A stretch of DNA of 64,000 nucleotides from Acidobacteriota bacterium (lineage in GTDB: Bacteria > Acidobacteriota > Thermoanaerobaculia > Multivoradales > JAGPDF01). The stretch covers positions 1,382-65,381 of the forward strand of contig JBDTNL010000014.1 of the NCBI GenBank assembly GCA_039933785.1, given 5' to 3'. Below the pieces are notes generated by a model, which did not search any database, was not told where the DNA came from, and was given only the letters and a program-made list of their open reading frames with translations. Below, piece after piece: positions 1 to 35,021 of this stretch (the stretch's first letter is position 1; the number at the start of each line of letters is the position of its first letter). The translations under genes and the position numbers were made by a program.

Positions 1-668
1 AGGTCATCGAGGGTCTTGAAGTCCGCCGAGTGGCAGGAATAGCAACCGAGGTTCGAAGTGAGATAGCGACCGTACGCGACCTTGTCCTCGACCGGCGGCG
101 TCGCGATGACCTTCTGAGGGTAGGGCAGGGGCTTGAAGGCCGTGTGGGTGAGCAGCTTGGTCAGGAATGAGGGCTGCGTCGTGCCTGCCGGATCGCTGGG
201 GACCGCCGCGACCATCGGATCGTCGGAGCGCAGAAACGCGACGATCGACTGCAAGTCTTCGTCCGACATCAGGGGCAGCTTCACCATCCAAGGCGGCAGG
301 TACTGGCCCTTGCGATCGATGCCGGTGCGCAACAGATAGATCAGCTCGCCGTCCGTCCAGGTGCCGAGGCCCTTCTGCGCGTCCTGCGTGATGTTCTTGG
401 AAAACGCGACACCGAACTGGGCCGGAAGATCACCGAGCTGCTTGCCGGTGAGCTGCCGGGTGGTCGGGTTCATGTGGCAGTCGGCGCAGAGCATCTTGGC
501 GAACTTCCTGCCGCGCGCGACACGCTCCGGTGTCGGCTCGACCTTGATCTGGACGTTGCCGGTGGGGTAGCGCGGGATGCCGGTGGCAGCGACGTACGAA
601 GCGAACGCGCCCGCCGCGACCAGCACGAGGAGCAAGGCGTAGCCGAGGACCTTCAGAACCTTCTTCAT
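1..668 (-). CDS. c-type cytochrome (partial, runs off window start); N-terminal signal/anchor, two CXXCH haem motifs
   Basis: Minus-strand reading from ATG at 668 gives MKKVLKVLGYALLLVLVAAGAFA... with CADCH and CYSCH haem-binding motifs; continuous ORF to position 1; not in ORF track because truncated. Confidence 0.7.
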   Translation of the reverse strand, partial: MKKVLKVLGYALLLVLVAAGAFASYVAATGIPRYPTGNVQIKVEPTPERVARGRKFAKMLCADCHMNPTTRQLTGKQLGDLPAQFGVAFSKNITQDAQKGLGTWTDGELIYLLRTGIDRKGQYLPPWMVKLPLMSDEDLQSIVAFLRSDDPMVAAVPSDPAGTTQPSFLTKLLTHTAFKPLPYPQKVIATPPVEDKVAYGRYLTSNLGCYSCHSADFKTLDD

Positions 669-700
669 GCTTGAGGTTCCCTAGTGAAATGACCGCATCG

Positions 701-740
701 AGAAAAAGGCCCTGCCTCGAGAATGCTTCGAGGCAGAGCC
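701..740 (-). terminator. Rho-independent terminator downstream of the M36 protease gene
   Basis: Minus-strand hairpin GGCTCTGCCTCGA/TCGAGGCAGGGCC (9+3 bp, 7-nt loop) followed immediately by TTTTTCT; 25 nt after the stop at 765. Confidence 0.5.
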
Positions 741-764
741 GAGTTGACGACTACTGGCGGGTCT

Positions 765-5048: not shown

Positions 5049-5128
5049 CGAAATCCCTCCAAGAATGAATTCGGTGCACTGCGGTTTCGGTAGGAGATTT
5101 TTACCACAGAAACGGCGGTCGCAGGCCG

Positions 5129-6877
5129 CTATTCGCCCCCAAGAAACGCCGTGGTGAGGAGTGGCACATAGGTGATGAGCAGCACCCCTCCGAGGAGGAC
5201 GAGCAGCATCGGCAGGACCGATCGATAGACCTCGAGTATCGGCCGCTCGAATCGATACGACGCGAGATACAAGTTGAGCCCCACCGGCGGCATCAGATAA
5301 CCGAGCTCCAGGTTGGCGATGAAGATTACGCCCAGATGCACGGGGTGAATGCCGAACGCGAGCCCGAGCGGCACGATCAGCGGCACCACCACGGCGATGG
5401 CCGAGAAGATGTCCATCAGGCAGCCGACCAGCAGCAGGAACACGTTGAGCCCGAGTAGGAAGACGTATTTGGAGTGCACGTGCTCACGCGTCCATTCGAG
5501 CATGTGGGTCGGGACCTGCGCGTCGACCAGGTAGCTGGTAAGGCCCACCGCGACGCCGAGGATGACCAGCACGCCGCCGACCAGGAGGGCCGAGCGCCAG
5601 AGCACGCGGTAGAGATCGCGGCCCAATCCGATATCGCGATAGATCACGCACTGGATGATCAGCGCGGATAGCGCGGTGAGTGCCGAGGCCTCGACGAGGG
5701 TGGTCTTGCCCGAGAAGATGCCGAAGAGCACGATGACCGGGAGGAGCAGCTCCCACTTCGCCGCCCACAGCGCGCGGAGCGCCTCGCCGCGATCGAACTT
5801 TCTCCGGACGGTCTGGCCGCGCGTGCCTTCGCGCACGCCGAGCGCGGCGGCGATGGTGAGCAGGAGGAGCCCCGGGAGCTGGCCACCCTTGAAGAGATCG
5901 GAGATCGGGGTCTTCGAGACGATGCCGTAGAGGATCATCGGCAGGGCCGGCGGAAACAGCAGGCCGAGCGAACCCGACGCGGTGAGCAGGCCGATCGAGA
6001 AGCGCTCGCCGTAACCATCCGCGCGAAGTGCTTTGTAGAGGAAGGGACCGAGGGCGAGAATGGTGACGCCCGAGCCACCGGTGAAGGTGGTGAAGAACGC
6101 CGAGAGCACCACGCACATCACCGCCGTGCCGCCGGGAACCCAACCGAAGAGGCCGCGGAAGAGTCGCAGGAGCCGTTCCGGCGCCTTGCCTTCCGCGAGC
6201 ACGAATCCGGTCAGCGTGAAGAGCGGAATGGCAGGCAGCGCCGCGTTCACCGCCAGGCGGTAGGTTTCGATCGGCACCGCCGCGATGGGCTCACCCGCGG
6301 CCATGAAGAGCAGAATGGCGGCGCCGCCGAGCGCCGAGAAGAGCGGCGCGCCGAGGAGTGTGGCGACCGCAACGATGAGTAGTCCCGGCCACGCCGCATG
6401 ACCGGCCAACCATTGCGGTTCGAAGCTGAGCAGCAAGCCTGCCGCCGCGCCGACGGCGGCGACCGTGCGCTCGCGCCAGGTCGGCCCGGTGCGCCGCACC
6501 AAGCGCCAGGCGATGAGGGTGAAGGCGAGCGGCAGGACGCTCTGGATGACCCAGATCGGTGCGATCGCGATCCGCTCACCGGTTTCGTACTCGAGCTTGA
6601 CCAGGTCGAACCCGGCGCGCGCGAGGAGCATGGCGACTCCCGCGCCGACCGCCGTCGCGGCCGCCGCGGACCAGCGTCGAATGGCGCCCTGGGGAAGGAA
6701 CTCACCGGTCGCGAGCGCCAGCAAGCGGCCCTCGCGCGCCGCCAACGCGGCGCCGAGGAACCCCACCCAGAGCACCAGGTTCTGAACGATCGGCTGTGAA
6801 CCCGAGATGCCGGTGTGGAAGATCTCTCGCGCCACCATTTCAGCGAGCGGTAGCACCACCATCACCGCCAGGGCCAA
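5129..6877 (-). CDS. TRAP transporter fused small/large permease (DctQ-DctM fusion), 582 aa
   Basis: ~18 predicted TM segments; N-terminal DctQ-like region then DctM-like 12-TM region; TTG start; immediately downstream of dctP. Confidence 0.85.
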   Translation of the reverse strand: MALAVMVVLPLAEMVAREIFHTGISGSQPIVQNLVLWVGFLGAALAAREGRLLALATGEFLPQGAIRRWSAAAATAVGAGVAMLLARAGFDLVKLEYETGERIAIAPIWVIQSVLPLAFTLIAWRLVRRTGPTWRERTVAAVGAAAGLLLSFEPQWLAGHAAWPGLLIVAVATLLGAPLFSALGGAAILLFMAAGEPIAAVPIETYRLAVNAALPAIPLFTLTGFVLAEGKAPERLLRLFRGLFGWVPGGTAVMCVVLSAFFTTFTGGSGVTILALGPFLYKALRADGYGERFSIGLLTASGSLGLLFPPALPMILYGIVSKTPISDLFKGGQLPGLLLLTIAAALGVREGTRGQTVRRKFDRGEALRALWAAKWELLLPVIVLFGIFSGKTTLVEASALTALSALIIQCVIYRDIGLGRDLYRVLWRSALLVGGVLVILGVAVGLTSYLVDAQVPTHMLEWTREHVHSKYVFLLGLNVFLLLVGCLMDIFSAIAVVVPLIVPLGLAFGIHPVHLGVIFIANLELGYLMPPVGLNLYLASYRFERPILEVYRSVLPMLLVLLGGVLLITYVPLLTTAFLGGE

Positions 6878-6915: not shown

Positions 6916-7971
6916 TCAGCGCGAGGCTCCCGGCTTGGCTGCGGGCTTGGTCGTCGGCTTGGGGCCGGACTTTCGATATTCATCCCGCAGTTTGAGCGCG
7001 GTGTCATAAGCGTCTGCCGGCACCACCACGCCGCGCATGGTGGTGAGGAGCTGCTCGGCCTCCTTGCGCCAGACGCCTTCTTGCGCCGCATCGATCGACA
7101 CCACCTTGAGTCCACGCTTGACCATCTCGGCGGTCGCCACCTTGTCCTGCTTGCCAGCCTCCTCCTGGAGGCGTTTCTCGGCGTGGCCGGCGGCCTCGAG
7201 CATCTTCTTTTGATCCTCCGGTGAGATTGCGTCCCAGGTCTTCTTGGTCAGAATCGTTCCGCCGAGCAGTGGGCCCATGCCGAGCTCAAGCATGTTGGGG
7301 AGCTGGCGGTACCACTGCAGGGTCAGCGCGGCGAGTGGAGTCGTCGGCATCGTCTGCAGCATTCCAGTCTGCAGGGCCGTCGGGATGTCGGTGGTCGAGA
7401 TCGCGACCGGCTGGAAGCCTTGCTGCTTCCACCAGCTGGTCATCTGGTCATCGCCGGCAAAGGAGAACATCTTTGAGCTCTTCAAGTCCGCCACGGTGGC
7501 CACCGGCTTGGCGCTGAACAGGTAGACCCAACCGACCTCACTCCAATTCAACAGCACGAAGCCCTTGGCCGCGAGTCGCTGCTCGAGCACGGGAGTCATC
7601 GCGGCCAGCACGGCGCGCATTTCTTCGTAGGAGGCGAAGAACAACGGCAAGCGGAACACCTTGAACGCCTCGTCGATTTCCGCCAGCCCATTCATCGAAA
7701 TCACACCGGCTTGGAGCTGGCCGACGCGCATCTTGCGCAGCATGTCGGGATCGTCGCCGGCGATGCCGCCGGCGTACAGGCGCATGGTGACGCGATTCGA
7801 GGTCGCGGTGCCCCACTCCGTGCCCATGTCTTTCACCGCCTGATACCAGACCGTGCCCTCCGGCAGTACGGTGGCGGTCTTGATCACTGTTGGGATGGCG
7901 GGACCTGCGTGAGCGGCATTGGTTGCGAGTATGGAAAGGGCCGCGATCGCGGCCGAGGTCGAGAGCTTCAT
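6916..7971 (-). CDS. dctP: TRAP transporter substrate-binding protein (DctP/TatP-type)
   Basis: Start moved to in-frame ATG at 7971 (MKLSTSAAIAALSILATNAAHA signal peptide, RBS GGAGAA); upstream ORF extension overlaps tatT in another frame. Confidence 0.85.
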   Translation of the reverse strand: MKLSTSAAIAALSILATNAAHAGPAIPTVIKTATVLPEGTVWYQAVKDMGTEWGTATSNRVTMRLYAGGIAGDDPDMLRKMRVGQLQAGVISMNGLAEIDEAFKVFRLPLFFASYEEMRAVLAAMTPVLEQRLAAKGFVLLNWSEVGWVYLFSAKPVATVADLKSSKMFSFAGDDQMTSWWKQQGFQPVAISTTDIPTALQTGMLQTMPTTPLAALTLQWYRQLPNMLELGMGPLLGGTILTKKTWDAISPEDQKKMLEAAGHAEKRLQEEAGKQDKVATAEMVKRGLKVVSIDAAQEGVWRKEAEQLLTTMRGVVVPADAYDTALKLRDEYRKSGPKPTTKPAAKPGASR

Positions 7972-23120: not shown

Positions 23121-24596
23121 TCAGTGCCCGACGCGCGCGAAGTCGACGAAGCCACGCTCGACGTCGGTGCTGATCAGCTTCACCGAAACGCGATCGCCGA
23201 CATCGAGCCCCTGCCAACCCTGTTCGAGGCGCCCTTCGACCGGCGGCCGCACCAGCCGAACCCAAGTGCCCTTCTCGGAAGCGCCGGTGACGAAGCCGTC
23301 GAAACGTTGCCCGACGCGATCCTCGAGCAGCAGCGCGGCCGCGGACTTGCGTACCTGACGCTCGATCTTGGCGGCGTCGTCCTCCTGCTCGGTGCAGTGC
23401 GCTGCCAAGGACTGCAGATCGCCCACGCTGTACGGCGATGGTGCCTTCATGAGCACCGACTTCAGCAACCGCTGCGTGATCACATCGGGATACCGGCGGT
23501 TGGGCGCCGTCGAGTGGGTGTAGTCCTTGACCGCCAGGCCGAAGTGCCCGGTGGGCGAGCCGCCGGGCAGGTCGACGGCGTACTCGCCGGAGCCCATCAG
23601 CTTCACGATGGTGAGCGACAGATCGGGGAAGCGCTGCGGATCGACTTGCTTGCGGCGGAGCAGGAATGCCTCGAGCGCGCCGGCATCGGGTTCGGCGGGC
23701 AGCGCCTCGCTTAGGGTATGGGCGACTTCGACGATGCGTGCCCACCGTTCGGGCGAGCGGAGAACGCGGCGCAGCGATGGCAAGCCGTGCTGGTCGAGGA
23801 AGCGTGCGCTGACGCCGTTCGCCGCGATCATCAAGTCTTCGATCAGCTGGCGGCCGCGATTCTTCTCCTGCAACTGGAGGTCCTCGATCCGATCGCCGGT
23901 GAACACCGCGTGCGCCTCGATGGTTTCGAGGTCGAGCGCGCCTTGACGATGCCGCACGCCGCGGAGTTTCTGCGCCGCCTCATCCTGCCAGCGCAGATTT
24001 TCTTCCAGGCCCGGCACCGCGGCGAGCGGCGCCGGCGCCGGACCCTTGCCGTCGAGCCACACGGAGACGCTGTCGTACGCGAGCTTGGCCTGGTTGCGCA
24101 CCGTGGCGCGATAGACGTCGGAGCCATTGAGCTCCCCGTCGGAAGTGACCACGGCTTGGATGACCACCGCCAGGCGATCGGCGTCCTGGATCAGCGAGGT
24201 GAGATCGGTCGACAGGCGTTCCGGCAGCATGGGATAGATGCGTGCCGCGGTGTAGACCGAGGTGGTGTTCACCGCCGCGTGGCGATCGATCGCCGAGCCC
24301 TTGGAGACCAGGGCGTCGACGTCGGCGATCGCGATCAGCAGCCTGGTGTCTCCATTCGGCAGGCGCTCGGCCACTGACAGCTGGTCGAGGTCGCGCGAGT
24401 CGTCGTTGTCGATCGAGCACCAGAGCATCCCGCGCAGGTCCTTCACCTCGGCTCCCTCAGCGTGGGCTGCTCTGGTGATGGACTGCAGCTGGGCGGTGAC
24501 GTCGGCGGGAAACTCGGGCTCGAGACCCTTGTCGCGCATGACGCGGTCGGAGATTCGGATCAGGTCGGCACGATCATGGCGCTGGCGAGGTGACAT
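23121..24596 (-). CDS. RNase II/RNase R family 3'-5' exoribonuclease (RNB domain + C-terminal S1)
   Basis: RNB-domain length and motifs, C-terminal S1-like KGTWVRLV...GDRVSVKLISTD; start placed at ATG 24596 (TTG 24680 alternative). Confidence 0.8.
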   Translation of the reverse strand: MSPRQRHDRADLIRISDRVMRDKGLEPEFPADVTAQLQSITRAAHAEGAEVKDLRGMLWCSIDNDDSRDLDQLSVAERLPNGDTRLLIAIADVDALVSKGSAIDRHAAVNTTSVYTAARIYPMLPERLSTDLTSLIQDADRLAVVIQAVVTSDGELNGSDVYRATVRNQAKLAYDSVSVWLDGKGPAPAPLAAVPGLEENLRWQDEAAQKLRGVRHRQGALDLETIEAHAVFTGDRIEDLQLQEKNRGRQLIEDLMIAANGVSARFLDQHGLPSLRRVLRSPERWARIVEVAHTLSEALPAEPDAGALEAFLLRRKQVDPQRFPDLSLTIVKLMGSGEYAVDLPGGSPTGHFGLAVKDYTHSTAPNRRYPDVITQRLLKSVLMKAPSPYSVGDLQSLAAHCTEQEDDAAKIERQVRKSAAALLLEDRVGQRFDGFVTGASEKGTWVRLVRPPVEGRLEQGWQGLDVGDRVSVKLISTDVERGFVDFARVGH

Positions 24597-24676
24597 GGAG
24601 CGGAATGATACAGCCAGCTGGGATCGTGCAGGGAAGGGCGACACCGATCGAACAGGCGGCGCCCCTCCCTTATGGT

Positions 24677-25117
24677 TCAACGCGCGAACGCGTACTTCAG
24701 GTCCCGCATGCGGTCGTGACTGGCACGAACGCGCGGCAGATAGCGGGCGACCGAGGCACGAAGCTCGGCGGAATCGTCGTGGACAGCCTCTTCGCAGGCG
24801 CGAAGAAGCTGGTCTTCGGCTTCCTCCAGCTGAGATATCAACATCGGGTCGAGGTCCAAGGTAAATTTCGCCCGGACCTCGGTATAGGCCTTGCGCAGAC
24901 CCCCCTTGAGCGTGCTGTCGAGCGCGGGAGGGTCGACCAGCGTGGCGACATGAACCGAGAGATCGTTGATCAGCTCGGCCTTGGCGCTGGTTAGCGCGCG
25001 AAACACATCGCGCAACCCCGGGGCGGTGTGTTGCAGAGCCGCCCAGCTGTAGAAGTCGCGCCCATCACGAGCGAGAGGCAGGAGCTCGTTCAGGGCTTCG
25101 CTGGTCTTGTCGCGCAT
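24677..25117 (-). CDS. PA2169/DUF2383 family four-helix-bundle protein
   Basis: 146 aa, helical, DFYSWAA motif typical of PA2169 family; third gene of small-protein operon. Confidence 0.6.
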   Translation of the reverse strand: MRDKTSEALNELLPLARDGRDFYSWAALQHTAPGLRDVFRALTSAKAELINDLSVHVATLVDPPALDSTLKGGLRKAYTEVRAKFTLDLDPMLISQLEEAEDQLLRACEEAVHDDSAELRASVARYLPRVRASHDRMRDLKYAFAR

Positions 25118-25129
25118 TGCGGGCCTCCG

Positions 25130-25279
25130 CTAAAGGACTCGCCGCCCCTGGATCAGCTGGACCAAGACCATGATCACGGCGACGATGAGAAGAATGTGAA
25201 TGAAGCCGCCCATGGTGTACGACGACACCATGCCGAGCAGCCAGAGAACGATGAGGATGACAGCAATAGTCCATAGCAT
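25130..25279 (-). CDS. lmo0937-family small membrane protein (49 aa), below ORF-track threshold
   Basis: Minus-strand ATG 25279 with RBS AGGAGA 9 nt upstream; MLWTIAVILIVLWLLGMVSSYTMGGFIHILLIVAVIMVLVQLIQGRRVL matches lmo0937 family closely. Confidence 0.7.
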   Translation of the reverse strand: MLWTIAVILIVLWLLGMVSSYTMGGFIHILLIVAVIMVLVQLIQGRRVL

Positions 25280-25291
25280 TGTCGTTATCTC

Positions 25292-25732
25292 CTAGGCGCC
25301 GACCTGAGCGTGAACTTCGATAACCTTGTTGCCACTGTCGTCCGTGTTTTGGATCAACTTGACCTTGGAACCGATCGCCACTCCGGCATCGATGGTGGCT
25401 CGCACCTTGGCGTCGTCGAGGTCGAAGCTGTGCTTGTCATTGTCGCCGGTCATCACTTCGATCTTCTTGCCGGCGGTGTATTCGGTGACCGTTCCGAGCA
25501 CCGTCTGCGACTTGCTGTCGACGCTGCCATCGGGAGTCTTGATGGTGGTTGACGTCGTCGAGTTCACCGTGTCGCCGACCTTCTCGGTCGCGGACTGGGT
25601 GACCTTGGTGCCTTCCGGCGTTTCGGTCTTGGTCTTGGTTTCGCTCTTGATGGTGTCAGGGGCGGTGTTGTTACACGCGGCTCCGGTCCCCAACATGGCA
25701 ACCAACAGAATCGAACAACTTATGGATCGCAT
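25292..25732 (-). CDS. Hypothetical lipoprotein (146 aa), Thr/Ser/Lys-rich, lower GC
   Basis: Lipobox LLVAMLGTGAAC; RBS GGGAGG; first gene downstream of a sigma-54 promoter. Confidence 0.6.
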   Translation of the reverse strand: MRSISCSILLVAMLGTGAACNNTAPDTIKSETKTKTETPEGTKVTQSATEKVGDTVNSTTSTTIKTPDGSVDSKSQTVLGTVTEYTAGKKIEVMTGDNDKHSFDLDDAKVRATIDAGVAIGSKVKLIQNTDDSGNKVIEVHAQVGA

Positions 25733-25783: not shown

Positions 25784-25799
25784 AGCAGCATTCGTGCCA
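25784..25799 (-). promoter_or_regulatory. Candidate sigma-54 (-24/-12) promoter for lipoprotein/lmo0937/PA2169 operon
   Basis: Minus-strand TGGCACgaatgCTGCT (GG-N10-GC), ~50 nt upstream of ATG 25732. Confidence 0.5.
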
Positions 25800-25893: not shown

Positions 25894-28617
25894 TCAGCGC
25901 CGTTCGCGGAAGCGCACGGCTTCCTCTTCGGTCACCGGGAGGCCCTGCCGGTTGATGATCCGCATATAGATCGCGTACGCGTGCTTGCGGTCGAGCGTTG
26001 TCCAGGGGAGCTCGATGTCGTAGCGGTACTTGGCGACCATGAAGGGCGAATCCTTCACCGCCACTGGAGCGGGCAAGTCGAGCATGCGGGTCTGCATGAA
26101 TACGTCGGAGCGCAGGAGCGAACGCCGCAGTTCGGCGCGCAGCATCAGATTCTCGTCGAAGCGGTAGTCGCTATAGAGCTCGAGCCGCACGCGGCCGCTC
26201 GCTGCCTCGCGATACATGCGCCCGGCGCGCAGGCGCGCGTCGGAGGAATCGATCCAATCGGCGTCGGGCACCTTCCCCATCGAATCGCTCTTGCCGACGC
26301 CCGTATCGGAGACGCCTCTGGAACCGGTCGCCAGAGGCGTGTGTTGAAAGGGTCCCGAACTGGTGCCCGGCGGTGCCGCGAGGGCCATGCCCGGCGTGGT
26401 CGTTGCCACCGTTGCGCCCACCGCGGACCCCGTGTTCGTCAGCCGCAGCGGCCGGAACATCGAATCGGTGAAGATCTCGGCCGCGTAGCCGACGTGGCTT
26501 GCGCCCCCCGCCACGCGCACCAGGAGGAGCTCCAGGAAAGCCACGTCGTCGGGGTCGGAATAGAGTTCCGACCAGCACTCGATGCAGCCCCGCCCGGTCT
26601 TGCCCGTGCTTCGCAGGTGATCCCAGTGGCGGACGAAGCCCTCGGCTTTGCGGAAGAGGTCCGCCGCCGAGGTGCGGCCATCGAACCCGATGCCGCGAGC
26701 TGCCGCCGGGTGGTTGCCGAACCAGGCGTCCAGTCGGCGTGCGATCGGCGGGTCCGTCGGCGGGCGATTGCGGCCGTTCGGGCGCCGCGCCGTCCACCCT
26801 GATCGCGACGCCGCGTTGGCCCAGGTGTCCTGGAGTGCGGGACCGAGGTAGAACTCGGCCAGCGCCCGCCAAAGGTAGCGGTCGTCCAGATCCTGCGCCT
26901 TCTCGATTTGTGCTCTGCCGGCGTCGATGTCGAGCGACAGGCTGACACCTTCACGATGACTCGCATCCTGGGGTCGCAGATCGGCGACCTCTGGGGTGTG
27001 GACCTCGGAGCCCAGGATGCCGCGCAGCAGGGCGGCCAGGCGCCCGATCTTCGCCGAGTCGGCCTCATGGTCGTGGATCTCGAGTCGGACCGAGAGCGTC
27101 TCCGGCGGCGCCTGCTTGTCGACGGGAGCGTCCAACGGCTGCGGATCGGAGCGCAGGGTGAGGATCGACCGCCGGCTTCGTTGCCGGTGATGCCACCAGT
27201 TCTGGTGCAGGTTCTGATAGCCGGCGCTGGTGGTCTCTACGTAGCGCTCGCTCGGCGTCTGGATCTCCTGCAGGACGCTCACCTTGTTGCGATCGGCCCG
27301 GAACCAGGACGGGAAGCGGGCCAAGAACGAATGCTCCCGCCGCTTGCCGTCGCGATAGCTCGAATTCAGGATCTCGACTCCGGCGCGTTGTTCGGCGGCC
27401 TGGAGGAGCGGCTTGAACTGCACGCGATGGCCGGTGCCGAGGAGCTGGGTGAACGCGGCCGCGGCGACCGGGTTCTTGAGATCGATGCGATAGACGATCT
27501 CCGAGGCTCGAAAGCCAGAGTTGTCGAACCGGTCGTTGAGCAGCGTGTAGCCGTAGTTCAAAAACAGGAGCTTCACTTCTGGGCGGATCTTGAGCGGCGT
27601 GGTCTCGAGCCCGCGCGCCGCGACGTTCTTCACTCGCACCAGAACGATGTCGTCGGCGCGCTTGACGATGGTGGTTTCGCGCAGGAAGCGCAGGAAGCCC
27701 TTGAAGTTCACTCTCGCGCCCCAGCGATCCATGCCCAGCGACACCGGCGCCACCTCGACGAAAGCCAGGTAGCTCACCGCGTCGCCACTCTGGAGCTCGG
27801 TGTTCGAGGCGTTGAACAAATCGGCGCGGATCGGAACTCCGAGATCCGCCCACACGGTGATCGGCTCGGCGAACCCCTCGAAGAAGACCGCCCCCTGCTC
27901 GGTGTCCTCGAAGTGGCGGCCGATCTGGCCCGCCAGCAGGCCGATGAAATCCGCCAGCCCGCGCCCGGCGTCATGCAGGATCTGACGGTTGAAATGCACG
28001 CCGTGTGTGGTCCAGTACTGCTGCATCTCCTCGGACGCTGTTCCGACGTGCAACCTCCGCGAGCTGCCCTCGGCGAGCGCATGCAAAGGCTCGGTGCTCG
28101 CCACGGTGATGACGAACCCGGCCTCGGTGGCGAGGCCGATGCGGAAGGGGTCCAAGCGGTCGCCCAGGTAGTCCACCTTCAGCCGGCCCTTGCCGAGCGC
28201 GGAGTTGATGCTCTGGAAGTACGAAAAGTCGTTCGTGCCGACCACGCCCCCGGGCTCGATCTCCTTGTGCCGCTCGACGACCCGGCGCTTGAAATTTGCC
28301 AGCAGCGTGAGATCCACTTTGTCGAAGGCGTGCCCGAGCTCGAACTGCAGATCGCCGAGATCCTGAAAGAGCTCGCCGTTGCGGGATTCCTTGAAGATTT
28401 CGTCGGAGAGCAGGTCCGTCGCCTCCGGCGAACGCGAGCCGTCGAAGCTGCCGAGCGCTTTCCATTCCGGGTTGCCGGCGAGGTCCGGCATCTCGCGAAT
28501 CTCGGACGCGGACTCCTGAGCGACCGCCGAGCTGGCCCAGGAGAGGCCGGCGAGCAAGGCGGCAGCACACGACAGGCGCCGACACCCGGCCAGCCGAGAT
28601 TCCGGAAAAAGCATCAT
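25894..28617 (-). CDS. Large secreted hypothetical protein (907 aa)
   Basis: Signal peptide; RBS GGGAGGG 10 nt upstream of ATG 28617; no recognisable catalytic motif. Confidence 0.75.
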   Translation of the reverse strand: MMLFPESRLAGCRRLSCAAALLAGLSWASSAVAQESASEIREMPDLAGNPEWKALGSFDGSRSPEATDLLSDEIFKESRNGELFQDLGDLQFELGHAFDKVDLTLLANFKRRVVERHKEIEPGGVVGTNDFSYFQSINSALGKGRLKVDYLGDRLDPFRIGLATEAGFVITVASTEPLHALAEGSSRRLHVGTASEEMQQYWTTHGVHFNRQILHDAGRGLADFIGLLAGQIGRHFEDTEQGAVFFEGFAEPITVWADLGVPIRADLFNASNTELQSGDAVSYLAFVEVAPVSLGMDRWGARVNFKGFLRFLRETTIVKRADDIVLVRVKNVAARGLETTPLKIRPEVKLLFLNYGYTLLNDRFDNSGFRASEIVYRIDLKNPVAAAAFTQLLGTGHRVQFKPLLQAAEQRAGVEILNSSYRDGKRREHSFLARFPSWFRADRNKVSVLQEIQTPSERYVETTSAGYQNLHQNWWHHRQRSRRSILTLRSDPQPLDAPVDKQAPPETLSVRLEIHDHEADSAKIGRLAALLRGILGSEVHTPEVADLRPQDASHREGVSLSLDIDAGRAQIEKAQDLDDRYLWRALAEFYLGPALQDTWANAASRSGWTARRPNGRNRPPTDPPIARRLDAWFGNHPAAARGIGFDGRTSAADLFRKAEGFVRHWDHLRSTGKTGRGCIECWSELYSDPDDVAFLELLLVRVAGGASHVGYAAEIFTDSMFRPLRLTNTGSAVGATVATTTPGMALAAPPGTSSGPFQHTPLATGSRGVSDTGVGKSDSMGKVPDADWIDSSDARLRAGRMYREAASGRVRLELYSDYRFDENLMLRAELRRSLLRSDVFMQTRMLDLPAPVAVKDSPFMVAKYRYDIELPWTTLDRKHAYAIYMRIINRQGLPVTEEEAVRFRERR

Positions 28618-28674: not shown

Positions 28675-28690
28675 AGCAGGATTGGTGCCA
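28675..28690 (-). promoter_or_regulatory. Candidate sigma-54 promoter for the 907-aa secreted protein gene
   Basis: Minus-strand TGGCACcaatcCTGCT (GG-N10-GC) ~58 nt upstream of ATG 28617. Confidence 0.5.
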
Positions 28691-28753
28691 GCGGCTGGAA
28701 AAGGGATCCCGGCGGCACTGCTCTTGCAGAGCCCCGCACAGACCGGGGGTGAT

Positions 28754-29839
28754 TTGGAGACGCCATTGATCGATGTCGAGCCTCAGAGCATCGCAGCTTC
28801 GCCCCGCGGCGCGGAGACCGCCCTGCGCGGTTTGTTCATTCTCGCCTGCTTCTATACCGCCTACTTCGCGCGCGATTTCCTGCTGCCGCTCGGCGTCGCA
28901 GTGCTATTGAAGTTCTTGCTCGACCCCCTCGTCCGGCGACTCAAGAGGTGGCGCGTGCCGGAAGCTGCGGGCGCCGCCATCGTGGTGCTGGCGATGCTCG
29001 GTGTGCTCGGCTACGGCGTGGTCTCATTGGCGCATCCGGCCGGCGAGTGGTTGGCCAGTCTGCCGGCGAGCGCACGCAAGCTCGAGAGCCAGCTGCGGCC
29101 TTGGCGCAAGCCGGTCGAGCAGGTTGCCTCCGCCGGCCAGCAAGTGGAGAAGATGGCCAACTTGGGTGCCGAGCCGGCGTCGGCGAGTGCGGTCCCGGCG
29201 ACGGCGCCTTCCGCTGCCTCGGCGATCGGCCGCACCGTTTCTATGCTCGGTACATTCCTTGTCACCTTGCTTCTTTTGTATTTTCTGCTCGCCTCCGGCA
29301 ATCTCATTCTGCGCAAACTGATCAAGGTGCTGCCTCGTCTCCAGGACAAGAAGCGCGCGGTTCGCATGGCAGAGCAGATCGAGAGCGAGGTCTCGGCGTA
29401 CCTGCTGACGATCACGGCGATCAACTTGGGGTTCGGCGCCGCCGTCGGTGTCGCGATGTGGGCCCTGAAAATGCCGAACCCGGTCCTCTGGGGCGTGCTC
29501 GCGATGGCGGCCAACTATCTGCCCTACCTGGGGCCCACGGTATGCGTGGCGGTGCTCACCGCGGTGGCGCTGCTGACCTTTGGCACGACTGGAACGGCGT
29601 TGCTGGTTCCCGCCGCCTTCCTAGCCCTGCATGCAGTCGAAAGCTACTTCGTCACGCCGTTCCTCGTCGGACGCCGGCTGACGCTCAATCCGTTGGCAAT
29701 TTTCCTCGGAGTCTCTTTTTGGGGCTGGGTTTGGGGCGTGCCGGGTGCGTTGCTGGCGGTCCCCTTCATGGCCATCTTCAAGATCTTCTGCGACCACATC
29801 GAGGGTCTCGGGGGGGTCGGCGAGTTCCTCGGAAGCTGA
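28754..29839 (+). CDS. AI-2E family transporter (PerM/UPF0118)
   Basis: 8 TM segments and conserved C-terminal region; start uncertain (ORF-track ATG 28616 would overlap divergent gene start and its promoter; TTG 28754 or 28766 more plausible). Confidence 0.8.
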   Translation: METPLIDVEPQSIAASPRGAETALRGLFILACFYTAYFARDFLLPLGVAVLLKFLLDPLVRRLKRWRVPEAAGAAIVVLAMLGVLGYGVVSLAHPAGEWLASLPASARKLESQLRPWRKPVEQVASAGQQVEKMANLGAEPASASAVPATAPSAASAIGRTVSMLGTFLVTLLLLYFLLASGNLILRKLIKVLPRLQDKKRAVRMAEQIESEVSAYLLTITAINLGFGAAVGVAMWALKMPNPVLWGVLAMAANYLPYLGPTVCVAVLTAVALLTFGTTGTALLVPAAFLALHAVESYFVTPFLVGRRLTLNPLAIFLGVSFWGWVWGVPGALLAVPFMAIFKIFCDHIEGLGGVGEFLGS

Positions 29840-29940
29840 GGGAGGGGAGCGCCAGTCGGGACGCCGAAGGTTCCCGCGTGACTCGGTGCGGCGGTGCTCA
29901 AGGGAGCGATGACGGCGCCCGAAAGCTCGCAAAGTGGAGC

Positions 29941-29956
29941 TGGCATACGCGATGCA
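29941..29956 (+). promoter_or_regulatory. Candidate sigma-54 promoter upstream of two small-protein genes
   Basis: TGGCATacgcgATGCA (GG-N10-GC), ~65 nt upstream of ATG 30022. Confidence 0.55.
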
Positions 29957-30021
29957 AACAACGATGGCAGAGATCACAGACAATCGAAGACTCTCAATGC
30001 CCGCGCGCCTGGAGAACGAAC

Positions 30022-30324
30022 ATGAAGCTCGCCGACCCTCTTAGCCCCAGTGAAGGTGTCCAGACGCTCGCCGATCCGGAGTTGCACTGGTTCGAGACCG
30101 CGGACCACGTGCCGTCCATGCTCAACGACATTGGCAAGCCCCTGGTCTGCTTTCGTCGCGACCGTGGCATCTACTTCGCGTGCTACCTGCCGGAGAAAGC
30201 CTGGTACTGGACCGGAGAGCAGGTCCCAGTTCCCGAGCGCTGGGCGCCTTCCGAGGGCGGCAACAGGAGTTGGCGTCACCGCGCTCGGGGTCGCTCCCCG
30301 GTCAGCCGTCAGGAGATGCTGTGA
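30022..30324 (+). CDS. Hypothetical small protein (100 aa)
   Basis: RBS GGAGAA 6 nt upstream; high GC3; stop overlaps next start (GTGA). Confidence 0.55.
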   Translation: MKLADPLSPSEGVQTLADPELHWFETADHVPSMLNDIGKPLVCFRRDRGIYFACYLPEKAWYWTGEQVPVPERWAPSEGGNRSWRHRARGRSPVSRQEML

Positions 30325-30830
30325 ACACGCCGGAGCGCGGTTTCCAGATCGTTCCTCGGGCCGAAGTGCCCGAGAACAAGGACCGCGACACATCGAGTAT
30401 CGATCCTGCCAAGCACGGCTTGGGCACCGGCTTCGGCGTTCTCGGGGGCGCGGCGGCGGGCGCGGCCGTCGGCGCTGCCGGCGGTCCCGCGGGCATGGCA
30501 GTCGGTGGGCTGGTCGGTGCCGTCGTTGGTGGCCTCGCGGGAAGGACTCTCGGCGAGGTGGTCAACCCGACGGTTGAGGAGGCCTACTGGCGCGCGGAGC
30601 ACACGCGCCGGCCGTATGGCGAGGCGACCTCCTTTGACGCCTATCGCGCTGCCTACCGGTACGGTTGGGAAGAGCGTCTGCGCCAACCGCTGGATCGAAG
30701 CTTTCGCGATTCGGAGCCCGAACTCGAGCGCGGCTGGGAGCACGGCCGGGGGCGATCGGGGCTGCCCTGGATCCAGGCGCGGCCGGCGGCCCAGGATGCC
30801 TGGGAGCGCGTGGAACGGGCTCGGGTCTAG
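30321..30830 (+). CDS. Glycine-zipper membrane-associated hypothetical protein (169 aa)
   Basis: GTG 30321 with GGAG 7 nt upstream; GLGTGFGVLGGAAAGAAVGAAGGPAGMAVGGLVGAVVGGLAG Gly-zipper; Trp/Arg/Glu-rich C-terminal tail. Confidence 0.55.
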   Translation: MNTPERGFQIVPRAEVPENKDRDTSSIDPAKHGLGTGFGVLGGAAAGAAVGAAGGPAGMAVGGLVGAVVGGLAGRTLGEVVNPTVEEAYWRAEHTRRPYGEATSFDAYRAAYRYGWEERLRQPLDRSFRDSEPELERGWEHGRGRSGLPWIQARPAAQDAWERVERARV

Positions 30831-30862
30831 GACTCTTTCCCTTTGTACATTTTGGGTACGGC

Positions 30863-32260
30863 TCAGCCTTCGCCGATGCCCGCGGCACTGTACTCGCGCA
30901 AGCGAGTGTAGAGCGTCTTCAGACTGATCCCGAGCGTGTTGGCAGCGGCCGGCTTGTCGCCTGCGCATTGTTCGAGCGTCGCCAGGACCACTCGCCGTTC
31001 GATGTCCGCAAGAGAGCTCGGAATGGACACCACCACGGTGTTCTTCGCGCCCGCCGCGGGAGACTCGGGACCGCCGTTCGTCTTCGCCGGCGCGACCAGA
31101 CCCTTGCCCTTCAATTGCACCGGCAGGTGCTCGAGGTGAATCTGTTCTTCGGCCAAGATGTAGGCCTGCTGCATCGCATTGCGCAGCTCACGCACATTGC
31201 CGGGCCACGCGTAGGCGCGCACTCCGGCAAGCGCCGAGGGCGAAAGATTCTTTTTGTCGCCGCTGGCGCTCGCGAAGTCGTCCAGAAAATAGTCGGTGAG
31301 GGCGAGGATGTCGTCGCCGCGCTCGCGCAGCGGCGGCAGGTCGACCGGGACGACACGCAATCGATAGAGCAGGTCGGCGCGGAATTTTCCCTGGGCTACC
31401 GACTCGTCAAGGTTGCAGTTCGAGGCCGCGATCACTCGCACGTCGACGGTGATTTGGCGTTCGGCGCCGACTCGCATGAAGGTTCCGGTCTCGAGGACCC
31501 GCAGGAGCTTCACCTGCAAGTCGAGCGGCATCTCGCTGATCTCGTCGAGGAAGAGAGTGCCCAGGTGGGCGCGTTCGAAGACGCCCTTGCGTTGGCGGTC
31601 GGCGCCGGTGAAGCTGCCGCGCTCATGGCCGAAGAGCTCGCTCTCGATGAGGGTCGCGGAGATCGCGCCGCAGTTGATGGCGATGAACGGCCGGTGCGCG
31701 CGGCGGCTGAGGCGGTGAATGGTTTCGGCGACCAGTTCCTTGCCGGTGCCGCTCTCGCCGCTGATCATCACGCTGGCGTCGGTGGGCGCCACGCGCGCGA
31801 TGCGGTCGTACACCTGCTGCATCGGAGTCGACGAACCGATCATCGACCCGAAACGGCCGAGCTCGCGGAGCGTCGAACGCAGCGCGGCGATCTCTTGCCG
31901 TTCGGCGCCGGTGCGGCAAATGCGTTCGAGCAGGGTCTTTAGTCGCGCCGCTTCCACCGGCTTTTGGAGAAAATCGGTAGCGCCGGCGCGCAGAGTTTCC
32001 ACCGCGACGTCCACGGTAGCGCGGCCCGTCACCATGACCAGTTCGGCGCCGGCGGCCACGCACTCCGGCGCCAACTCGAGGCCGGTGCCATCGGGCAAGT
32101 GGTAGTCGGCGAGCACGGCGATGGGCGCCACCGTCGCCAGGGCTTGGCGGGCGGACTGGAGATCGCGCGCGGTGACGGTCTCCAGCCCCTCGGCGCGCAC
32201 CAACGCCTCCAGGGCGCTCAGGGATACGGGTTCGTCATCGACGATTAGGATCGTTTGCAT
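30863..32260 (-). CDS. Sigma-54-dependent response regulator (NtrC family: REC + AAA+ + Fis HTH)
   Basis: N-terminal REC (DDEP...D), Walker A GESGTGKE, GAFTGA-type motif ERGSFTGA, C-terminal HTH. Confidence 0.9.
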   Translation of the reverse strand: MQTILIVDDEPVSLSALEALVRAEGLETVTARDLQSARQALATVAPIAVLADYHLPDGTGLELAPECVAAGAELVMVTGRATVDVAVETLRAGATDFLQKPVEAARLKTLLERICRTGAERQEIAALRSTLRELGRFGSMIGSSTPMQQVYDRIARVAPTDASVMISGESGTGKELVAETIHRLSRRAHRPFIAINCGAISATLIESELFGHERGSFTGADRQRKGVFERAHLGTLFLDEISEMPLDLQVKLLRVLETGTFMRVGAERQITVDVRVIAASNCNLDESVAQGKFRADLLYRLRVVPVDLPPLRERGDDILALTDYFLDDFASASGDKKNLSPSALAGVRAYAWPGNVRELRNAMQQAYILAEEQIHLEHLPVQLKGKGLVAPAKTNGGPESPAAGAKNTVVVSIPSSLADIERRVVLATLEQCAGDKPAAANTLGISLKTLYTRLREYSAAGIGEG

Positions 32261-32283
32261 GGCGTTCTCTTTAGACTAGCAGT

Positions 32284-32299
32284 TGGCTTCCGTCTTGCT
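32284..32299 (+). promoter_or_regulatory. Weak candidate sigma-54 promoter upstream of hybrid histidine kinase
   Basis: TTGGCTtccgtcTTGCT with GG-N10-GC spacing; only ~13 nt 5'UTR before RBS AGGGGGA. Confidence 0.3.
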
Positions 32300-32322
32300 A
32301 CCATCGTGTCAAGGGGGACCTC

Positions 32323-34725
32323 TTGCCATCATCCGAGCCCGATCTCTCATCCAGTCCCACCGCCCGCAAGCTCGGCTTGACCAGTACGAGATTCTTCGTC
32401 CCCGAGGTCAGATCTCCGGCGCTGCGGGTGTTGGTTGCTGTTGGGTTGGCGGCGATGATTCCCTTGGCCTACTCGCGGAGCGCTGAGTGGGCGGGGACGG
32501 GCTCCTATTTCGTGCTCGCGTTTCTGGCGGTGATCGCCTCGGCTTGGCTCGGTCGGCTGGCGTCGGGTTTGATCACGCTGGTCGCCTGTGCCCTGCTGAG
32601 CATCTATTTCTTCCCGGCGCCGAACCCCGAATGGACGGTGGACGCTCACAGGGCCCGCCTCACTCTGCTCTTCCTGATTGGCGGGGGACTGATCTGCCTG
32701 GTTATTGAAGCCCTGCATTTCGGTCACTCGGTCACCTCGCGCCTGCGCGCCGAGAGCGAGGCCCTGGCTCGGCAGCTGGCGGCGGAGCGCGAGCGCCTGC
32801 ATGCGTTTCTCGCCAACCTGCCCGGCGTCGTTTGGGAGGCCGCGCTGGCGCCGGGCCACGCGCGCCCCTTGATGTCGTTCATGTCGCCGAACGTCGAGAG
32901 CCGGCTGGGCTGGAAGCCCGAGGCGCTGAACCTGGCCGACTCGGCCTGGCGGGCGGTCCTGCATCCTGAAGACGAGCAGACGCTGTGGAGCGCCCTCCAG
33001 GCGGCCCAGCCGGGATCGGTGGGGCGCGTCCGCGGGCGGTGGGTGGATCCCCAGGGTGGTGTGCGCTGGTTCGATACCTATTTCTCGAGCGGCTCCGGTC
33101 CCGAGGGAGCGAACCATCGCCTGCGCTGCCTTTCGGTCGACGTCACCGACGCCGAACGCGCCGAGCGCGCGGTGGAGAACAGCGAGTTACGTTTCCGCGC
33201 CACCGCCGAACGGGCGCCGATGATGATGTGGCGCGCCGACCCGGAGGGCAACACCACTTGGGCCAACCGCGCCTGGCTCGAGTTTCGCGGCCGGGCGATG
33301 GACTTCGAGTCCGGTCTCGGCTGGCTGCGCGACGTTCACGCCGACGACCTCGACTCGGTGGCGCGAGCGCTCACCCGCTCGGCGGGCTCCAAGGACGAAG
33401 TCCGGTTGGAGTACCGGGTGCGTAAACACGATGGGACCTTCCCTTGGGTGTTCTCGCTGCGCCTGCCGCAGGCCGACAGCGAGGGCGCGCTCGATGGCTA
33501 CCTGGGTTTCGCGATCGACATCAGCGAGCGCAAGGAGCTCGAGCTGCAGCGCGAGCGCATGCTGAAGGAGACCCAGCGGGCTCGGCTCGAAGCCGAGATC
33601 GCGACCCGTAGCAAGGACGACTTCCTGGCCAAGGTGTCGCATGAGTTGCGCAACCCGCTGAACGGGATCCTGGGCTGGGCGCAACTGCTGCGCCGCGACG
33701 ACATCGAACCCGAGGAGATGACCCGCGGCTTGGCGATGCTCGAATCGGGCGCGCGCGCTCTCTCGCAACTGGTGGACGACCTGCTCGACGTCTCCCGCAT
33801 CATCGCGGGCAAGATGGACCTGGCGCTCGAGCAAACCGATCTGCGCTCCGTGCTCGAGGCCGCCATGGCCACGGTAACGCCGGCGGCCGAGGCCAAAGGC
33901 GTCGAGCTCGAGGCCGCGGCGCCGGAGGATCTGCCGGTGGTGATGGGCGATCCCCGGCGATTGCGCCAAGTGGCCTGGAATCTACTCGCGAATGGCGTGA
34001 AGTTCACCCCGCGAGGTGGGCGCGTCCGCTGGGCGATCGAGCGGGAGGGTTCGCTGTTGGCCCTCCGAGTGACCGACACCGGCATCGGGATCGCACCCGA
34101 GTTCCTGCCCGAGGTGTTCTCGCCGTTCCGCCAGGGTGAGTCGACGACGACCAGGCGCTACCAGGGGCTCGGCCTCGGCCTGGCTATCGTGCGTCAACTG
34201 GTGGAGCTCCACGGCGGGACCGTGGACGCGCAGAGCGCGGGCCTGGAGCAGGGCTCCACCTTCACTGTCCGCCTCCCCGTGGCGAGCATGACTGCCGCCT
34301 CCGCCCCAGTAGTGGAAGCGCCCGAGGAAGACGACGCGGCCGCGTTGTCGGGCGTCGCGGTGCTGGTGGTCGACGACGACCCGACCGCTCGCGAGCTCCT
34401 GCACGTCTTGCTGTCGCGGGTGGGCGCGCAGTGTCGCGAAGCCGCTTCGCCAAGCGAGGCCCGCGCGCTGCTCGAAGATCGGCTCCCGAACGTCATCGTG
34501 AGCGACATCGAGATGCCCAACGAGGACGGCTATTCCTTCCTCCGCAGCCTGCGCGCTCTCGAGCCTCGGCGTGGAGGGAGCATTCCGGCGATCGCCTTGA
34601 CCGCATTCGCGCAGGCCGAGGACCGCAAGCGAACGGCGCTGGCGGGCTTTCAAGCTCATCTGGCGAAACCGGTCGACGTCGAGTTGCTGGTCAGCACGAT
34701 CGCGCAGATGGCACGCACCCCGTAG
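32323..34725 (+). CDS. Hybrid sensor histidine kinase (TM N-terminus, PAS domains, HisKA, HATPase_c, C-terminal REC)
   Basis: H-box VSHELRNPLN, G-boxes, C-terminal receiver VLVVDDDP...D; TTG start with RBS. Confidence 0.85.
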   Translation: MPSSEPDLSSSPTARKLGLTSTRFFVPEVRSPALRVLVAVGLAAMIPLAYSRSAEWAGTGSYFVLAFLAVIASAWLGRLASGLITLVACALLSIYFFPAPNPEWTVDAHRARLTLLFLIGGGLICLVIEALHFGHSVTSRLRAESEALARQLAAERERLHAFLANLPGVVWEAALAPGHARPLMSFMSPNVESRLGWKPEALNLADSAWRAVLHPEDEQTLWSALQAAQPGSVGRVRGRWVDPQGGVRWFDTYFSSGSGPEGANHRLRCLSVDVTDAERAERAVENSELRFRATAERAPMMMWRADPEGNTTWANRAWLEFRGRAMDFESGLGWLRDVHADDLDSVARALTRSAGSKDEVRLEYRVRKHDGTFPWVFSLRLPQADSEGALDGYLGFAIDISERKELELQRERMLKETQRARLEAEIATRSKDDFLAKVSHELRNPLNGILGWAQLLRRDDIEPEEMTRGLAMLESGARALSQLVDDLLDVSRIIAGKMDLALEQTDLRSVLEAAMATVTPAAEAKGVELEAAAPEDLPVVMGDPRRLRQVAWNLLANGVKFTPRGGRVRWAIEREGSLLALRVTDTGIGIAPEFLPEVFSPFRQGESTTTRRYQGLGLGLAIVRQLVELHGGTVDAQSAGLEQGSTFTVRLPVASMTAASAPVVEAPEEDDAAALSGVAVLVVDDDPTARELLHVLLSRVGAQCREAASPSEARALLEDRLPNVIVSDIEMPNEDGYSFLRSLRALEPRRGGSIPAIALTAFAQAEDRKRTALAGFQAHLAKPVDVELLVSTIAQMARTP

Positions 34726-34754
34726 AGTCGGAATGGGGCGAAGACCCCCGTCGG

Positions 34755-34770
34755 TGGCACGAAAACTGCT
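34755..34770 (+). promoter_or_regulatory. Candidate sigma-54 promoter 30 nt after the kinase stop
   Basis: TGGCACgaaaaCTGCT (GG-N10-GC). Confidence 0.45.
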
Positions 34771-34857
34771 AAATCAAGGACTGTAGCCGCGCGCAGTGCC
34801 TCGCGGCCTCTTCCCCAACGAGGCCGGCCGCTGTTTGGCTGGCTGCTCGCCCCCGCG

Positions 34858-34902
34858 GAGCCGGAGAGAGCCGACTCTCTCCGGCTCCGTCCCTCCATTT
34901 TT
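34858..34902 (+). terminator. Perfect 13-bp stem-loop followed (after 10 nt) by T5; possible terminator or protein-binding element
   Basis: GAGCCGGAGAGAG-ccga-CTCTCTCCGGCTC then cgtccctccaTTTTTgg. Confidence 0.4.
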
Positions 34903-34912
34903 GGTGTCGCAG

Positions 34913-34941
34913 TTGACAGACTCAAACAGTCGTTTGATACT
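34913..34941 (+). promoter_or_regulatory. Sigma-70-like promoter of tetR/efflux operon with embedded 16-bp palindrome (candidate TetR operator)
   Basis: TTGACA(34913-18)-17 nt-GATACT; palindrome TCAAACagtcGTTTGA at 34922-34937 within the spacer. Confidence 0.45.
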
Positions 34942-35021
34942 CCCGTTTCCAACTGCGGCGAGCCCGGTCGCCTCGCTCGCCGTTGAATGGGCTTAGCAGA
35001 TCCCGGGGAGGACACGCGGAA

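Follow-up and report, generated by a model that had tools for sequence, protein, structure and literature searches.

A predicted sigma-54 promoter ahead of a coupled pair of small-protein genes beside an NtrC-type activator gene in an Acidobacteriota genome

The window analysed here is a 64-kb stretch of an Acidobacteriota genome with a G+C content of 67%, in which two small genes lie between a putative sigma-54 (-24/-12) promoter and the gene of a sigma-54 activator. The promoter (TGGCATacgcgATGCA, 29941-29956, forward strand) precedes gene 1 (30022-30324, forward strand), which encodes a soluble protein of 100 residues, and gene 2 (30321-30830, forward strand), which encodes a protein of 169 residues. 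In sequence, the two products are the same as ABI609_06125 and ABI609_06130, hypothetical proteins annotated in an Acidobacteriota metagenome-assembled genome. Convergent with the pair lies the gene of an NtrC-type activator, or enhancer-binding protein (30863-32260, reverse strand, identified with Pfam). The gap between gene 2 and the activator stop codon amounts to 32 nt, where the original prediction, made from the sequence alone, had counted 33; its remaining coordinates are correct. The gene of a hybrid histidine kinase (32323-34725, forward strand) is divergent from the activator gene at a distance of 62 nt, and coordinates and Pfam agree with the arrangement predicted for these two genes. 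The gene map is based on third-position G+C (GC3), Pfam and the gene calls made for this organism in other assemblies; GC3 reaches 0.79 in each small open reading frame (ORF), compared to 0.58 in the spacer at 29840-30021. We consider it likely that 29941-29956 acts as a functional sigma-54 promoter of the coupled gene pair and that the adjacent activator is its most likely regulator.

The motif itself, TGGCATACGCGATGCA, carries a GG doublet at 29942-29943 and a GC doublet at 29954-29955 with 10 nt between them, and its end lies exactly 65 nt ahead of the ATG of gene 1 (30022), within a 182-nt spacer 3' of an AI-2E transporter gene. The canonical GG-N10-GC spacing and the 65-nt distance claimed for it were both measured in the sequence. 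Departures from TGGCAC-N5-TTGCW are two, namely T for C in the -24 element and A for T before the TGC of the -12 element. Transcription is predicted to start near 29966-29968, about 12 nt past the GC, which would leave a leader of about 55 nt. Scoring of the window with a sigma-54 position weight matrix (PWM), a check that had been proposed at the outset, gave the site 13.9 bits and the fourth rank among about 128,000 positions; the matrix was approximated from the published consensus.

Several of these figures weigh against the motif being a promoter. At two mismatches to the strict consensus the window contains 26 matches, with 21 expected. The relaxed TGGCAY-N5-WTGCW has a single match (0.09 expected), yet 7 of 100 shuffled sequences contain at least one, and shuffled windows are expected to hold about 1.4 matches of 13 bits or more each, so that 13.9 bits falls within the chance range for 64 kb. 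The noncoding DNA ahead of the promoter is short (about 100 nt here and about 38 nt in the relative L001, described below), and the window does not contain rpoN, so that only the activator gene points to sigma-54 being present. The motif could then have arisen by chance, with the operon transcribed from an unrecognised promoter of the sigma-70 or extracytoplasmic function (ECF) type, or by read-through from the AI-2E transporter gene. Strong accidental matches do occur, such as the 19.3-bit sigma-54-like match at 2810-2826 of a contig of the cyanobacterium Alkalinema (L020); cyanobacteria are not known to have sigma-54, and the match shows that a single site may score highly by chance. Likewise, a DNA pattern built on a 19-nt version of the motif (TGGCAYACNCGATGCAAAC) matched 37 metagenome contigs, none of which encodes relatives of the genes at this locus, and was discarded as yielding chance matches. 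Chance could account for the motif taken by itself, but not for where it lies, for its conservation or for the way the sites cluster. We regard a fortuitous motif as very improbable.

Conservation can be followed in L001, the sole relative with a syntenic locus and retrievable DNA, which comes from a 1.6x-coverage assembly. Its gene order comprises a frameshifted gene 1, an orthologue of gene 2 (74% identity), the activator, the kinase, a TetR gene and efflux genes. The motif is kept as TTGGCACACTCGATGCAAAC in the equivalent place (7642-7657; 17.9 bits), whereas the DNA upstream of it can hardly be aligned and 15 nt are missing from the leader. Conservation of the motif in related genomes, which the original prediction had named as a point on which it could fail, is therefore found while the flanks diverge, at one orthologous locus. 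The pattern TGGCAY-N6-TGCW occurs four times in L001, with 0.06 matches expected. To the left of the operon the two loci have nothing in common: the window has an AI-2E transporter gene there, L001 gas-vesicle genes. The unit therefore travels with the activator side. Read-through from the AI-2E transporter gene was rejected because the upstream neighbour in L001 is divergent, which makes read-through impossible there, and a scan for sigma-70 promoters between 25 and 35.5 kb of the window found as its sole candidate one that precedes the TetR gene. A scan of metagenomes of the Joint Genome Institute (JGI) with the gene 1 alignment for further orthologous loci returned nothing.

The gas-vesicle cluster of L001 (1076-7605, left of the operon, with matches to Gas_vesicle, GvpK, GvpL/GvpF and GvpG) embeds a PAS/HisKA kinase and a receiver protein. 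This is an unusual setting for an Acidobacteriota-like contig.

The two small genes are tightly joined. The GTG start of gene 2 overlaps the TGA stop of gene 1 (GTGA, 30321-30324, forward strand), and an AGGAG inside gene 1 (30311-30315) lies 5 nt ahead of the GTG. The 4-nt overlap is kept in L001, where it reads ATGA, and in the contig of P0002 (genes at 193-495 and 492-701). Overlap, internal AGGAG and retained arrangement all bear out the proposal of a two-gene, translationally coupled operon. Gene 1 starts with ATG and has a GGAG 7 nt ahead (30011-30014), while the GTG start of gene 2 matches the ATG start at the equivalent residue of the orthologue P0004. The coupled operon occurs in this lineage only, and the coupling therefore suggests that the two proteins act together. 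A canonical intrinsic terminator was not found after gene 2, merely a weak 5-bp stem at 30823-30835.

The gene 1 protein has two conserved Cys, many Trp and a conserved core (HW.ET..P..L.E.G.PL.CF...G....AC..PE..WYW....P..P.RWA.P) that is followed by a basic tail. Its family is rare: one homologue is 71% identical, and an exhaustive HMMER search of 1.84 billion representatives adds three clusters. The three distant homologues are each preceded by a correctly oriented sigma-54 site (CTGGCACGCGACGTGCT, CTGGCACAGGACGTGCT and TTGGCACGGCGCGTGCA) and stand alone in their contigs, with no gene 2 following. Five members of the family had no match in Pfam at E <= 10, a PDB sequence search with gene 1 gave none either, and the single-sequence AlphaFold model was unusable, with a predicted local distance difference test score (pLDDT) of 38. 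A supposed resemblance to DUF551 was not supported. The possibility that gene 1 is a mere leader was rejected, given its conservation at the protein level in five lineages. The contig of one distant homologue (L122, 298-5508) carries more sigma-54-like sites, before a 108-aa gene and a DUF6496-DUF3175 pair, and appears to be another cluster of small genes driven by sigma-54.

The gene 2 protein comprises a hydrophilic N-terminus, a 45-residue Gly/Ala zipper segment (approximately residues 35-80, nt 30423-30560) and a C-terminal four-helix bundle (residues 80-169). The centre of the zipper segment holds a GGP that is invariant in the family alignment, which suggests a helix-turn-helix hairpin. 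The AlphaFold model has a pLDDT above 90 at residues 80-169, with helices at 83-96, 105-121, 128-142 and 150-168; this bundle is rich in conserved Trp and Tyr, and longer family members carry two copies of it. We infer that the protein is monotopic or hairpin-anchored in the cytoplasmic membrane, with the bundle in the cytoplasm. Resemblance of the segment to the Pfam glycine zipper is real but confined to residues 35-80, and some homologues carry precomputed PF13488 matches. Against such an anchor it counts that the zipper remains below the Pfam gathering thresholds (20.9 vs 25 bits for PF13488, Gly-zipper_Omp; 15.2 vs 28.9 bits for PF13441), is modelled at low confidence and reaches a peak hydropathy of 1.53, which is borderline for a membrane segment. 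A PDB profile search with gene 2 matched the zipper segment alone; the bundle is covered by no Pfam model and has no relative among PDB sequences, and Foldseek against the PDB returned nothing for it at E <= 0.001. Both small proteins can thus be called uncharacterised, as had been proposed, with no Pfam or PDB match for gene 1 and no Pfam model for the bundle of gene 2.

The gene 2 family, with more than 1900 detectable homologues, offers a wider view of promoter recurrence. The survey covered 80 loci of different species, of which 78 were usable; a site counted if it scored 12 bits or more, lay on the coding strand and was no more than 220 nt from the estimated gene start. A sigma-54 site was present upstream of the gene 2 homologue in 23 of the 78 species (about 30%), lying 45-125 nt before start codons that have Shine-Dalgarno sequences, compared to 0/78 on the opposite strand and 1/396 in shifted windows. 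Together with the sites ahead of all three distant gene 1 homologues, this recurrence cannot be chance. Loci with a site belong to Acidobacteriota (mostly Thermoanaerobaculia), Planctomycetota, Sumerlaeales and some Lysobacterales and Burkholderiales, hence to at least three phyla; loci without one include Acinetobacter, cyanobacteria and most Burkholderiales. The claim of a sigma-54 promoter is upheld both by the motif kept in L001 and by these sites, which recur upstream of the two gene families in other lineages.

Some of the surveyed loci show further structure around their promoters. Thermoanaerobaculia carry a variant -24 element, TTGGCCCC-N4-TTTGCA, upstream of gene 2 homologues (L016, L018, L033, L034, L035, L038, L043 and L053). 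In L018, L033, L034 and L035 this element is preceded, at a distance of 10-25 nt, by a conserved GGATGCTAGCACA (palindrome TGCTAGCA); three direct repeats of ATTTGCGGC occur in L016, and L032 has the palindrome GGACAATTTGTCC plus further copies of TTTGTCCG. Such repeats and palindromes are candidate activator sites, which differ between lineages. L032, a contig of Planctomycetota, also contains five sigma-54 sites within 8 kb (600-5600), which precede a DUF3309 gene, an ice-binding-like gene, a GGDEF gene, a gene 2 homologue with a Dps/ferritin gene after it, and an 89-aa gene.

Within the window, the predicted promoter is one of several. The five best PWM matches of the 64 kb all fall at 25.8-34.8 kb, around the activator gene, and sites scoring 12 bits or more number five between 25 and 35 kb and zero in the remaining 54 kb. 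The pattern TGGCAY-N6-TGCW has four matches (0.30 expected; none of 100 shuffles reaches four), all of them at 25.8-34.8 kb and each either 51-65 nt before a start codon or directly after the kinase gene. A putative second promoter (TGGCACGAATGCTGCT, 25784-25799, reverse strand), which has the best PWM score of the window (18.4 bits), lies 51 nt ahead of a lipoprotein-DUF5670-DUF2383 operon (24677-25732, reverse strand). The third (TGGCACCAATCCTGCT, 28675-28690, reverse strand; 16.2 bits) lies 57 nt ahead of the gene of a 907-aa protein and coincides in part with the start called for the AI-2E transporter gene, which is divergent. The fourth (TGGCACGAAAACTGCT, 34755-34770, forward strand) directly follows the kinase gene and has its orthologue at 12816-12831 of L001. 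These sites suggest that the operon belongs as one arm to a sigma-54 stress locus with several promoters, in which at least four sigma-54 units surround the two-component system. The original prediction of a compact sensor, activator and target module stands in so far as the activator/kinase pair and the operon do adjoin; it does not hold for a compact module with a single target, given at least four putative sigma-54 promoters and a candidate small RNA around the activator.

The sites' neighbouring genes were assigned from GC3, Pfam and gene calls. In coordinate order, the reverse strand carries an RNase II family gene (23121-24680) and then the genes of the operon, namely DUF2383 (24677-25117), DUF5670 (25130-25279, a 49-aa membrane protein) and a 146-aa lipoprotein (25292-25732). 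The 907-aa protein (25894-28617, reverse strand) has a signal peptide and no match in Pfam, NCBIfam or PADLOC. The AI-2E transporter gene (about 28685-29839, forward strand) ends 182 nt upstream of gene 1. An anti-phage defence system was considered and dropped, as PADLOC models gave zero matches to the two small proteins, the 907-aa protein and the lipoprotein. From 34983 onwards, the forward strand carries genes of a TetR regulator, an outer-membrane factor, a membrane-fusion protein and a resistance-nodulation-division (RND) pump. Directly ahead of this TetR gene/RND efflux operon, at 34913-34960 (forward strand), lies a sigma-70-like TTGACA-17-GATACT with the palindrome CAAACAGTCGTTTG, in a promoter region that is near-identical in L001; the palindrome is probably the TetR operator.

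The intergenic region between activator and kinase holds two overlapping sigma-54-like motifs (32283-32312). One, TTGGCTTCCGTCTTGCT (forward strand, 13.2 bits), faces the kinase gene. The other, TTGACACGATGGTAGCA (reverse strand), faces the activator gene and has its GG changed to GA in the window copy, while its L001 orthologue is the intact CTGGCACGATGGTAGCA (15.6 bits); it may be a lost autoregulatory promoter.

What follows the fourth promoter is a candidate sigma-54-dependent small RNA (34779-34905, forward strand), which has three hairpins, no ORF and an invariant 3' tail, GUCCCUCC. The approximately 125 nt after 34755-34770 are 89% identical to L001 (blastn), which is above the conservation of coding DNA, and the fold has a z-score of -5.0. 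Homologues occur in L001, L126 and L127, each behind its own sigma-54 site near the same kinase/activator pair, and in L126 and L127 they directly follow sigma-54 sites that would otherwise be orphans. Covariation is thin, with two compensatory pairs among four sequences. Rfam yielded nothing at gathering level in the whole window, nor at E <= 1 in 29800-35000, and a covariance model of the candidate, run on 42 sources, matched its four training copies alone.

The activator is an intact protein with a complete receiver-AAA+-HTH_8 architecture in Pfam (Response_reg, 1.6e-17; Sigma54_activat, 3.7e-71; AAA_lid_14; HTH_8, 5e-12, of the Fis type), in line with its assignment to the NtrC family. Its translation contains the Walker A motif GESGTGKE and a GSFTGA loop, with Ser for the first Ala; the L130 orthologue has GAFTGA. 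Among NCBIfam equivalogs it remains below all cut-offs, with AtoC as the best (390 vs 714), followed by NtrC (380 vs 558.6), ZraR (314.8 vs 760) and PspF (289.8 vs 443.55). The kinase combines a DUF4118 membrane domain, two PAS domains, HisKA, HATPase_c and a receiver. It is a hybrid kinase with no histidine phosphotransfer (Hpt) protein in view, which makes the phosphotransfer route to the activator less certain.

Activator orthologues of 60-75% identity in Acidobacteriota were compared, on seven other contigs in all. A divergent DUF4118/PAS hybrid kinase stands beside the activator in L126, L127, L128, L130 and L131 and is also its partner in L001; in L129 the kinase is not adjacent. The density of sigma-54 sites is 0.29 per kb in these loci and 0.075 per kb in unrelated contigs. 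The genes behind the sites are an 85-aa membrane protein, a 71-aa protein, DUF1328 and a 119-aa tail-anchored ElaB-like protein in L128; an outer-membrane protein beta-barrel, two small genes, DUF1328-Ku-LigD and a 119-aa gene in L129; a DUF1328-like gene and then CsbD in L130; DUF1328-CsbD-BON (site of 11.7 bits), then an RND efflux cluster as in the window, in L131; and, in L126 and L127, an iron-permease-like gene with a second activator as well as an 83-aa DUF883_C protein. The idea that the targets are of a general-stress type finds contextual support here, as activator orthologues adjoin DUF1328, CsbD, BON and ElaB-like genes that appear to be driven by sigma-54. In relatives, the site directly after the kinase gene precedes the iron-permease-like (PF04120) gene (L126, 3776-4433; L127, 3718-4393; L001, 12353-12846), which is followed by the second NtrC-type activator gene in L126 and L127. 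The window has no PF04120 gene and has the putative small-RNA promoter in that place instead.

From this conserved neighbourhood we infer the link between activator and target, and the adjacent activator is probably the regulator of the operon promoter. A different arrangement can be envisaged, in which the sigma-54 promoter is genuine but an unlinked enhancer-binding protein activates it, while the neighbouring activator serves other targets and proximity merely reflects a stress island. No activator gene was found within 4 kb of gene 2 homologues in the 80 other loci (0/80), though 23 have sigma-54 sites, so that across the family at large gene 2 and the activator are unlinked, and the gene 1 homologues preceded by sigma-54 sites also lack a nearby activator. 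L126 and L127 hold a second activator gene at this locus. Inverted-repeat dyads and shared k-mers were sought upstream of 9 and then 29 promoters, and none exceeded shuffles; no shared upstream binding motif was found, and candidate repeats vary by lineage. The sole marginal k-mer, CGCGCAG, derives partly from orthologous kinase coding sequence. However, activator orthologues on the seven contigs nearly always adjoin sigma-54-driven small genes, even though these genes differ, and in the window and L001 the operon stays with the activator while the other flank changes. Moreover, the metagenome-assembled genome JBDTQG01 carries an activator orthologue on one contig (L129) and, on another (L069), a sigma-54-driven homologue of gene 2, an arrangement that fits one activator serving linked as well as unlinked targets. 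Activation by an unlinked protein appears unlikely to us, although it is a more serious contender than a chance motif.

Control by the adjacent activator has several counterparts among known systems. In Escherichia coli and Salmonella, zraP/zraSR is an envelope-stress two-component system beside a sigma-54-dependent small-protein target. The present locus resembles zraSR in that a kinase and an NtrC-type activator stand beside a putative sigma-54 promoter for a small stress protein, and the activator matches the ZraR model with 314.8 bits, which is nevertheless far under the equivalog cut-off of 760. ZraP is a periplasmic protein that carries a signal peptide, and zraP and zraSR diverge from a common control region, whereas the targets here lack a signal peptide and are convergent with the activator gene; the kinase differs as well, being a DUF4118/PAS hybrid, and several promoters are present. 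Domains of ZraP, PspA/IM30, PspB and PspC were absent from the two small proteins in Pfam and NCBIfam at E <= 0.1. Gene 2 has a GxxxG-rich zipper with a weak likeness to that of the SlyB, Gly-zipper_Omp and YMGG lipoproteins (SlyB, 7ojf, E = 2.4e-4; PF13488, E = 3.5e-4), but it has no signal peptide or lipobox and is therefore not an outer-membrane lipoprotein, and it carries the additional C-terminal four-helix bundle.

General stress regulons are controlled by sigma-B in Bacillus (CsbD), RpoS in E. coli (ElaB, YqjD, OsmY/BON) and EcfG in Alphaproteobacteria. Genes of the same classes, whose products are small and mostly membrane-associated (CsbD, DUF1328, DUF883/ElaB-like, BON, DUF2383, DUF5670, Dps and Ku/LigD), likewise stand behind the promoters described here. 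Unlike these regulons, which depend on factors of the sigma-70 family, the promoters here are of the -24/-12 type and would need an ATP-dependent activator. Small RNAs that depend on sigma-54 and lie near their activators are known as well, namely Qrr with LuxO and GlmY with GlrR. The candidate RNA is comparable, as it follows a putative sigma-54 promoter beside the kinase/activator pair, here and in three other genomes; it differs in matching no Rfam family.

In the phage-shock system pspF/pspABCDE, a sigma-54 promoter beside the activator gene drives small inner-membrane proteins that are thought to protect the stressed membrane (Joly et al., 2010, as cited in PMC3162934). The locus described here shares the placement of a putative sigma-54 promoter by an activator gene and the small, predicted membrane-associated products, for which a protective function may be supposed. 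It differs in its regulator, since PspF has no receiver domain and is controlled by the binding of PspA rather than by a kinase, whereas the present activator has a receiver. With an activator under both the ZraR and the PspF cut-offs and targets devoid of ZraP or Psp domains, the locus belongs to neither the zra nor the psp system. In the comparison of sigma-54 regulons by Francke et al. (PMC3162934), Acidobacteria and Planctomycetes are unmentioned, and general stress response is mentioned for sigma-B only, as background. Our literature searches found no paper that ties the protein families considered here to sigma-54.

We propose the following sequence of events for the locus. RNA polymerase with sigma-54 would bind the site as a closed complex, and transcription would start near 29967 only upon ATP hydrolysis by an AAA+ enhancer-binding protein, most likely the receiver-AAA+-HTH protein that is encoded 32 nt past the operon. 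The divergent DUF4118/PAS hybrid kinase would in turn phosphorylate this activator on receipt of a signal that probably has to do with the envelope or with growth arrest. The resulting transcript would carry the two coupled genes and permit synthesis of the 100-aa soluble protein together with the 169-aa predicted cytoplasmic-membrane protein, anchored by its zipper hairpin. The lipoprotein-DUF5670-DUF2383 operon, the 907-aa secreted protein and the candidate small RNA would join the operon in a local stress regulon of small membrane-associated proteins.

Altogether, a two-component system whose enhancer-binding protein is encoded near a sigma-54 promoter is a familiar combination, and it is the cargo and its wide recurrence that are new. 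We speculate, as a tentative idea that we hold to be possible rather than probable, that sigma-54 could do the job of RpoS, sigma-B or EcfG in Acidobacteriota of the Thermoanaerobaculia type and perhaps in Planctomycetota, together with the conserved DUF4118/PAS kinase and NtrC-type activator. Such a dispersed regulon may include the gene 2 and gene 1 families, DUF1328, CsbD, BON, ElaB-like proteins, DUF2383, DUF5670, DUF3309, Dps, Ku/LigD and a new small RNA with an anti-Shine-Dalgarno-like tail. If true, the window would represent the core locus of an undescribed general stress response. A large uncharacterised family, that of gene 2, carries putative sigma-54 promoters across at least three phyla. 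If confirmed, these findings would provide a named candidate regulator, a promoter set and a small RNA, and with them a way into experiments on stress regulation in Acidobacteriota, a soil phylum that is abundant but poorly studied.

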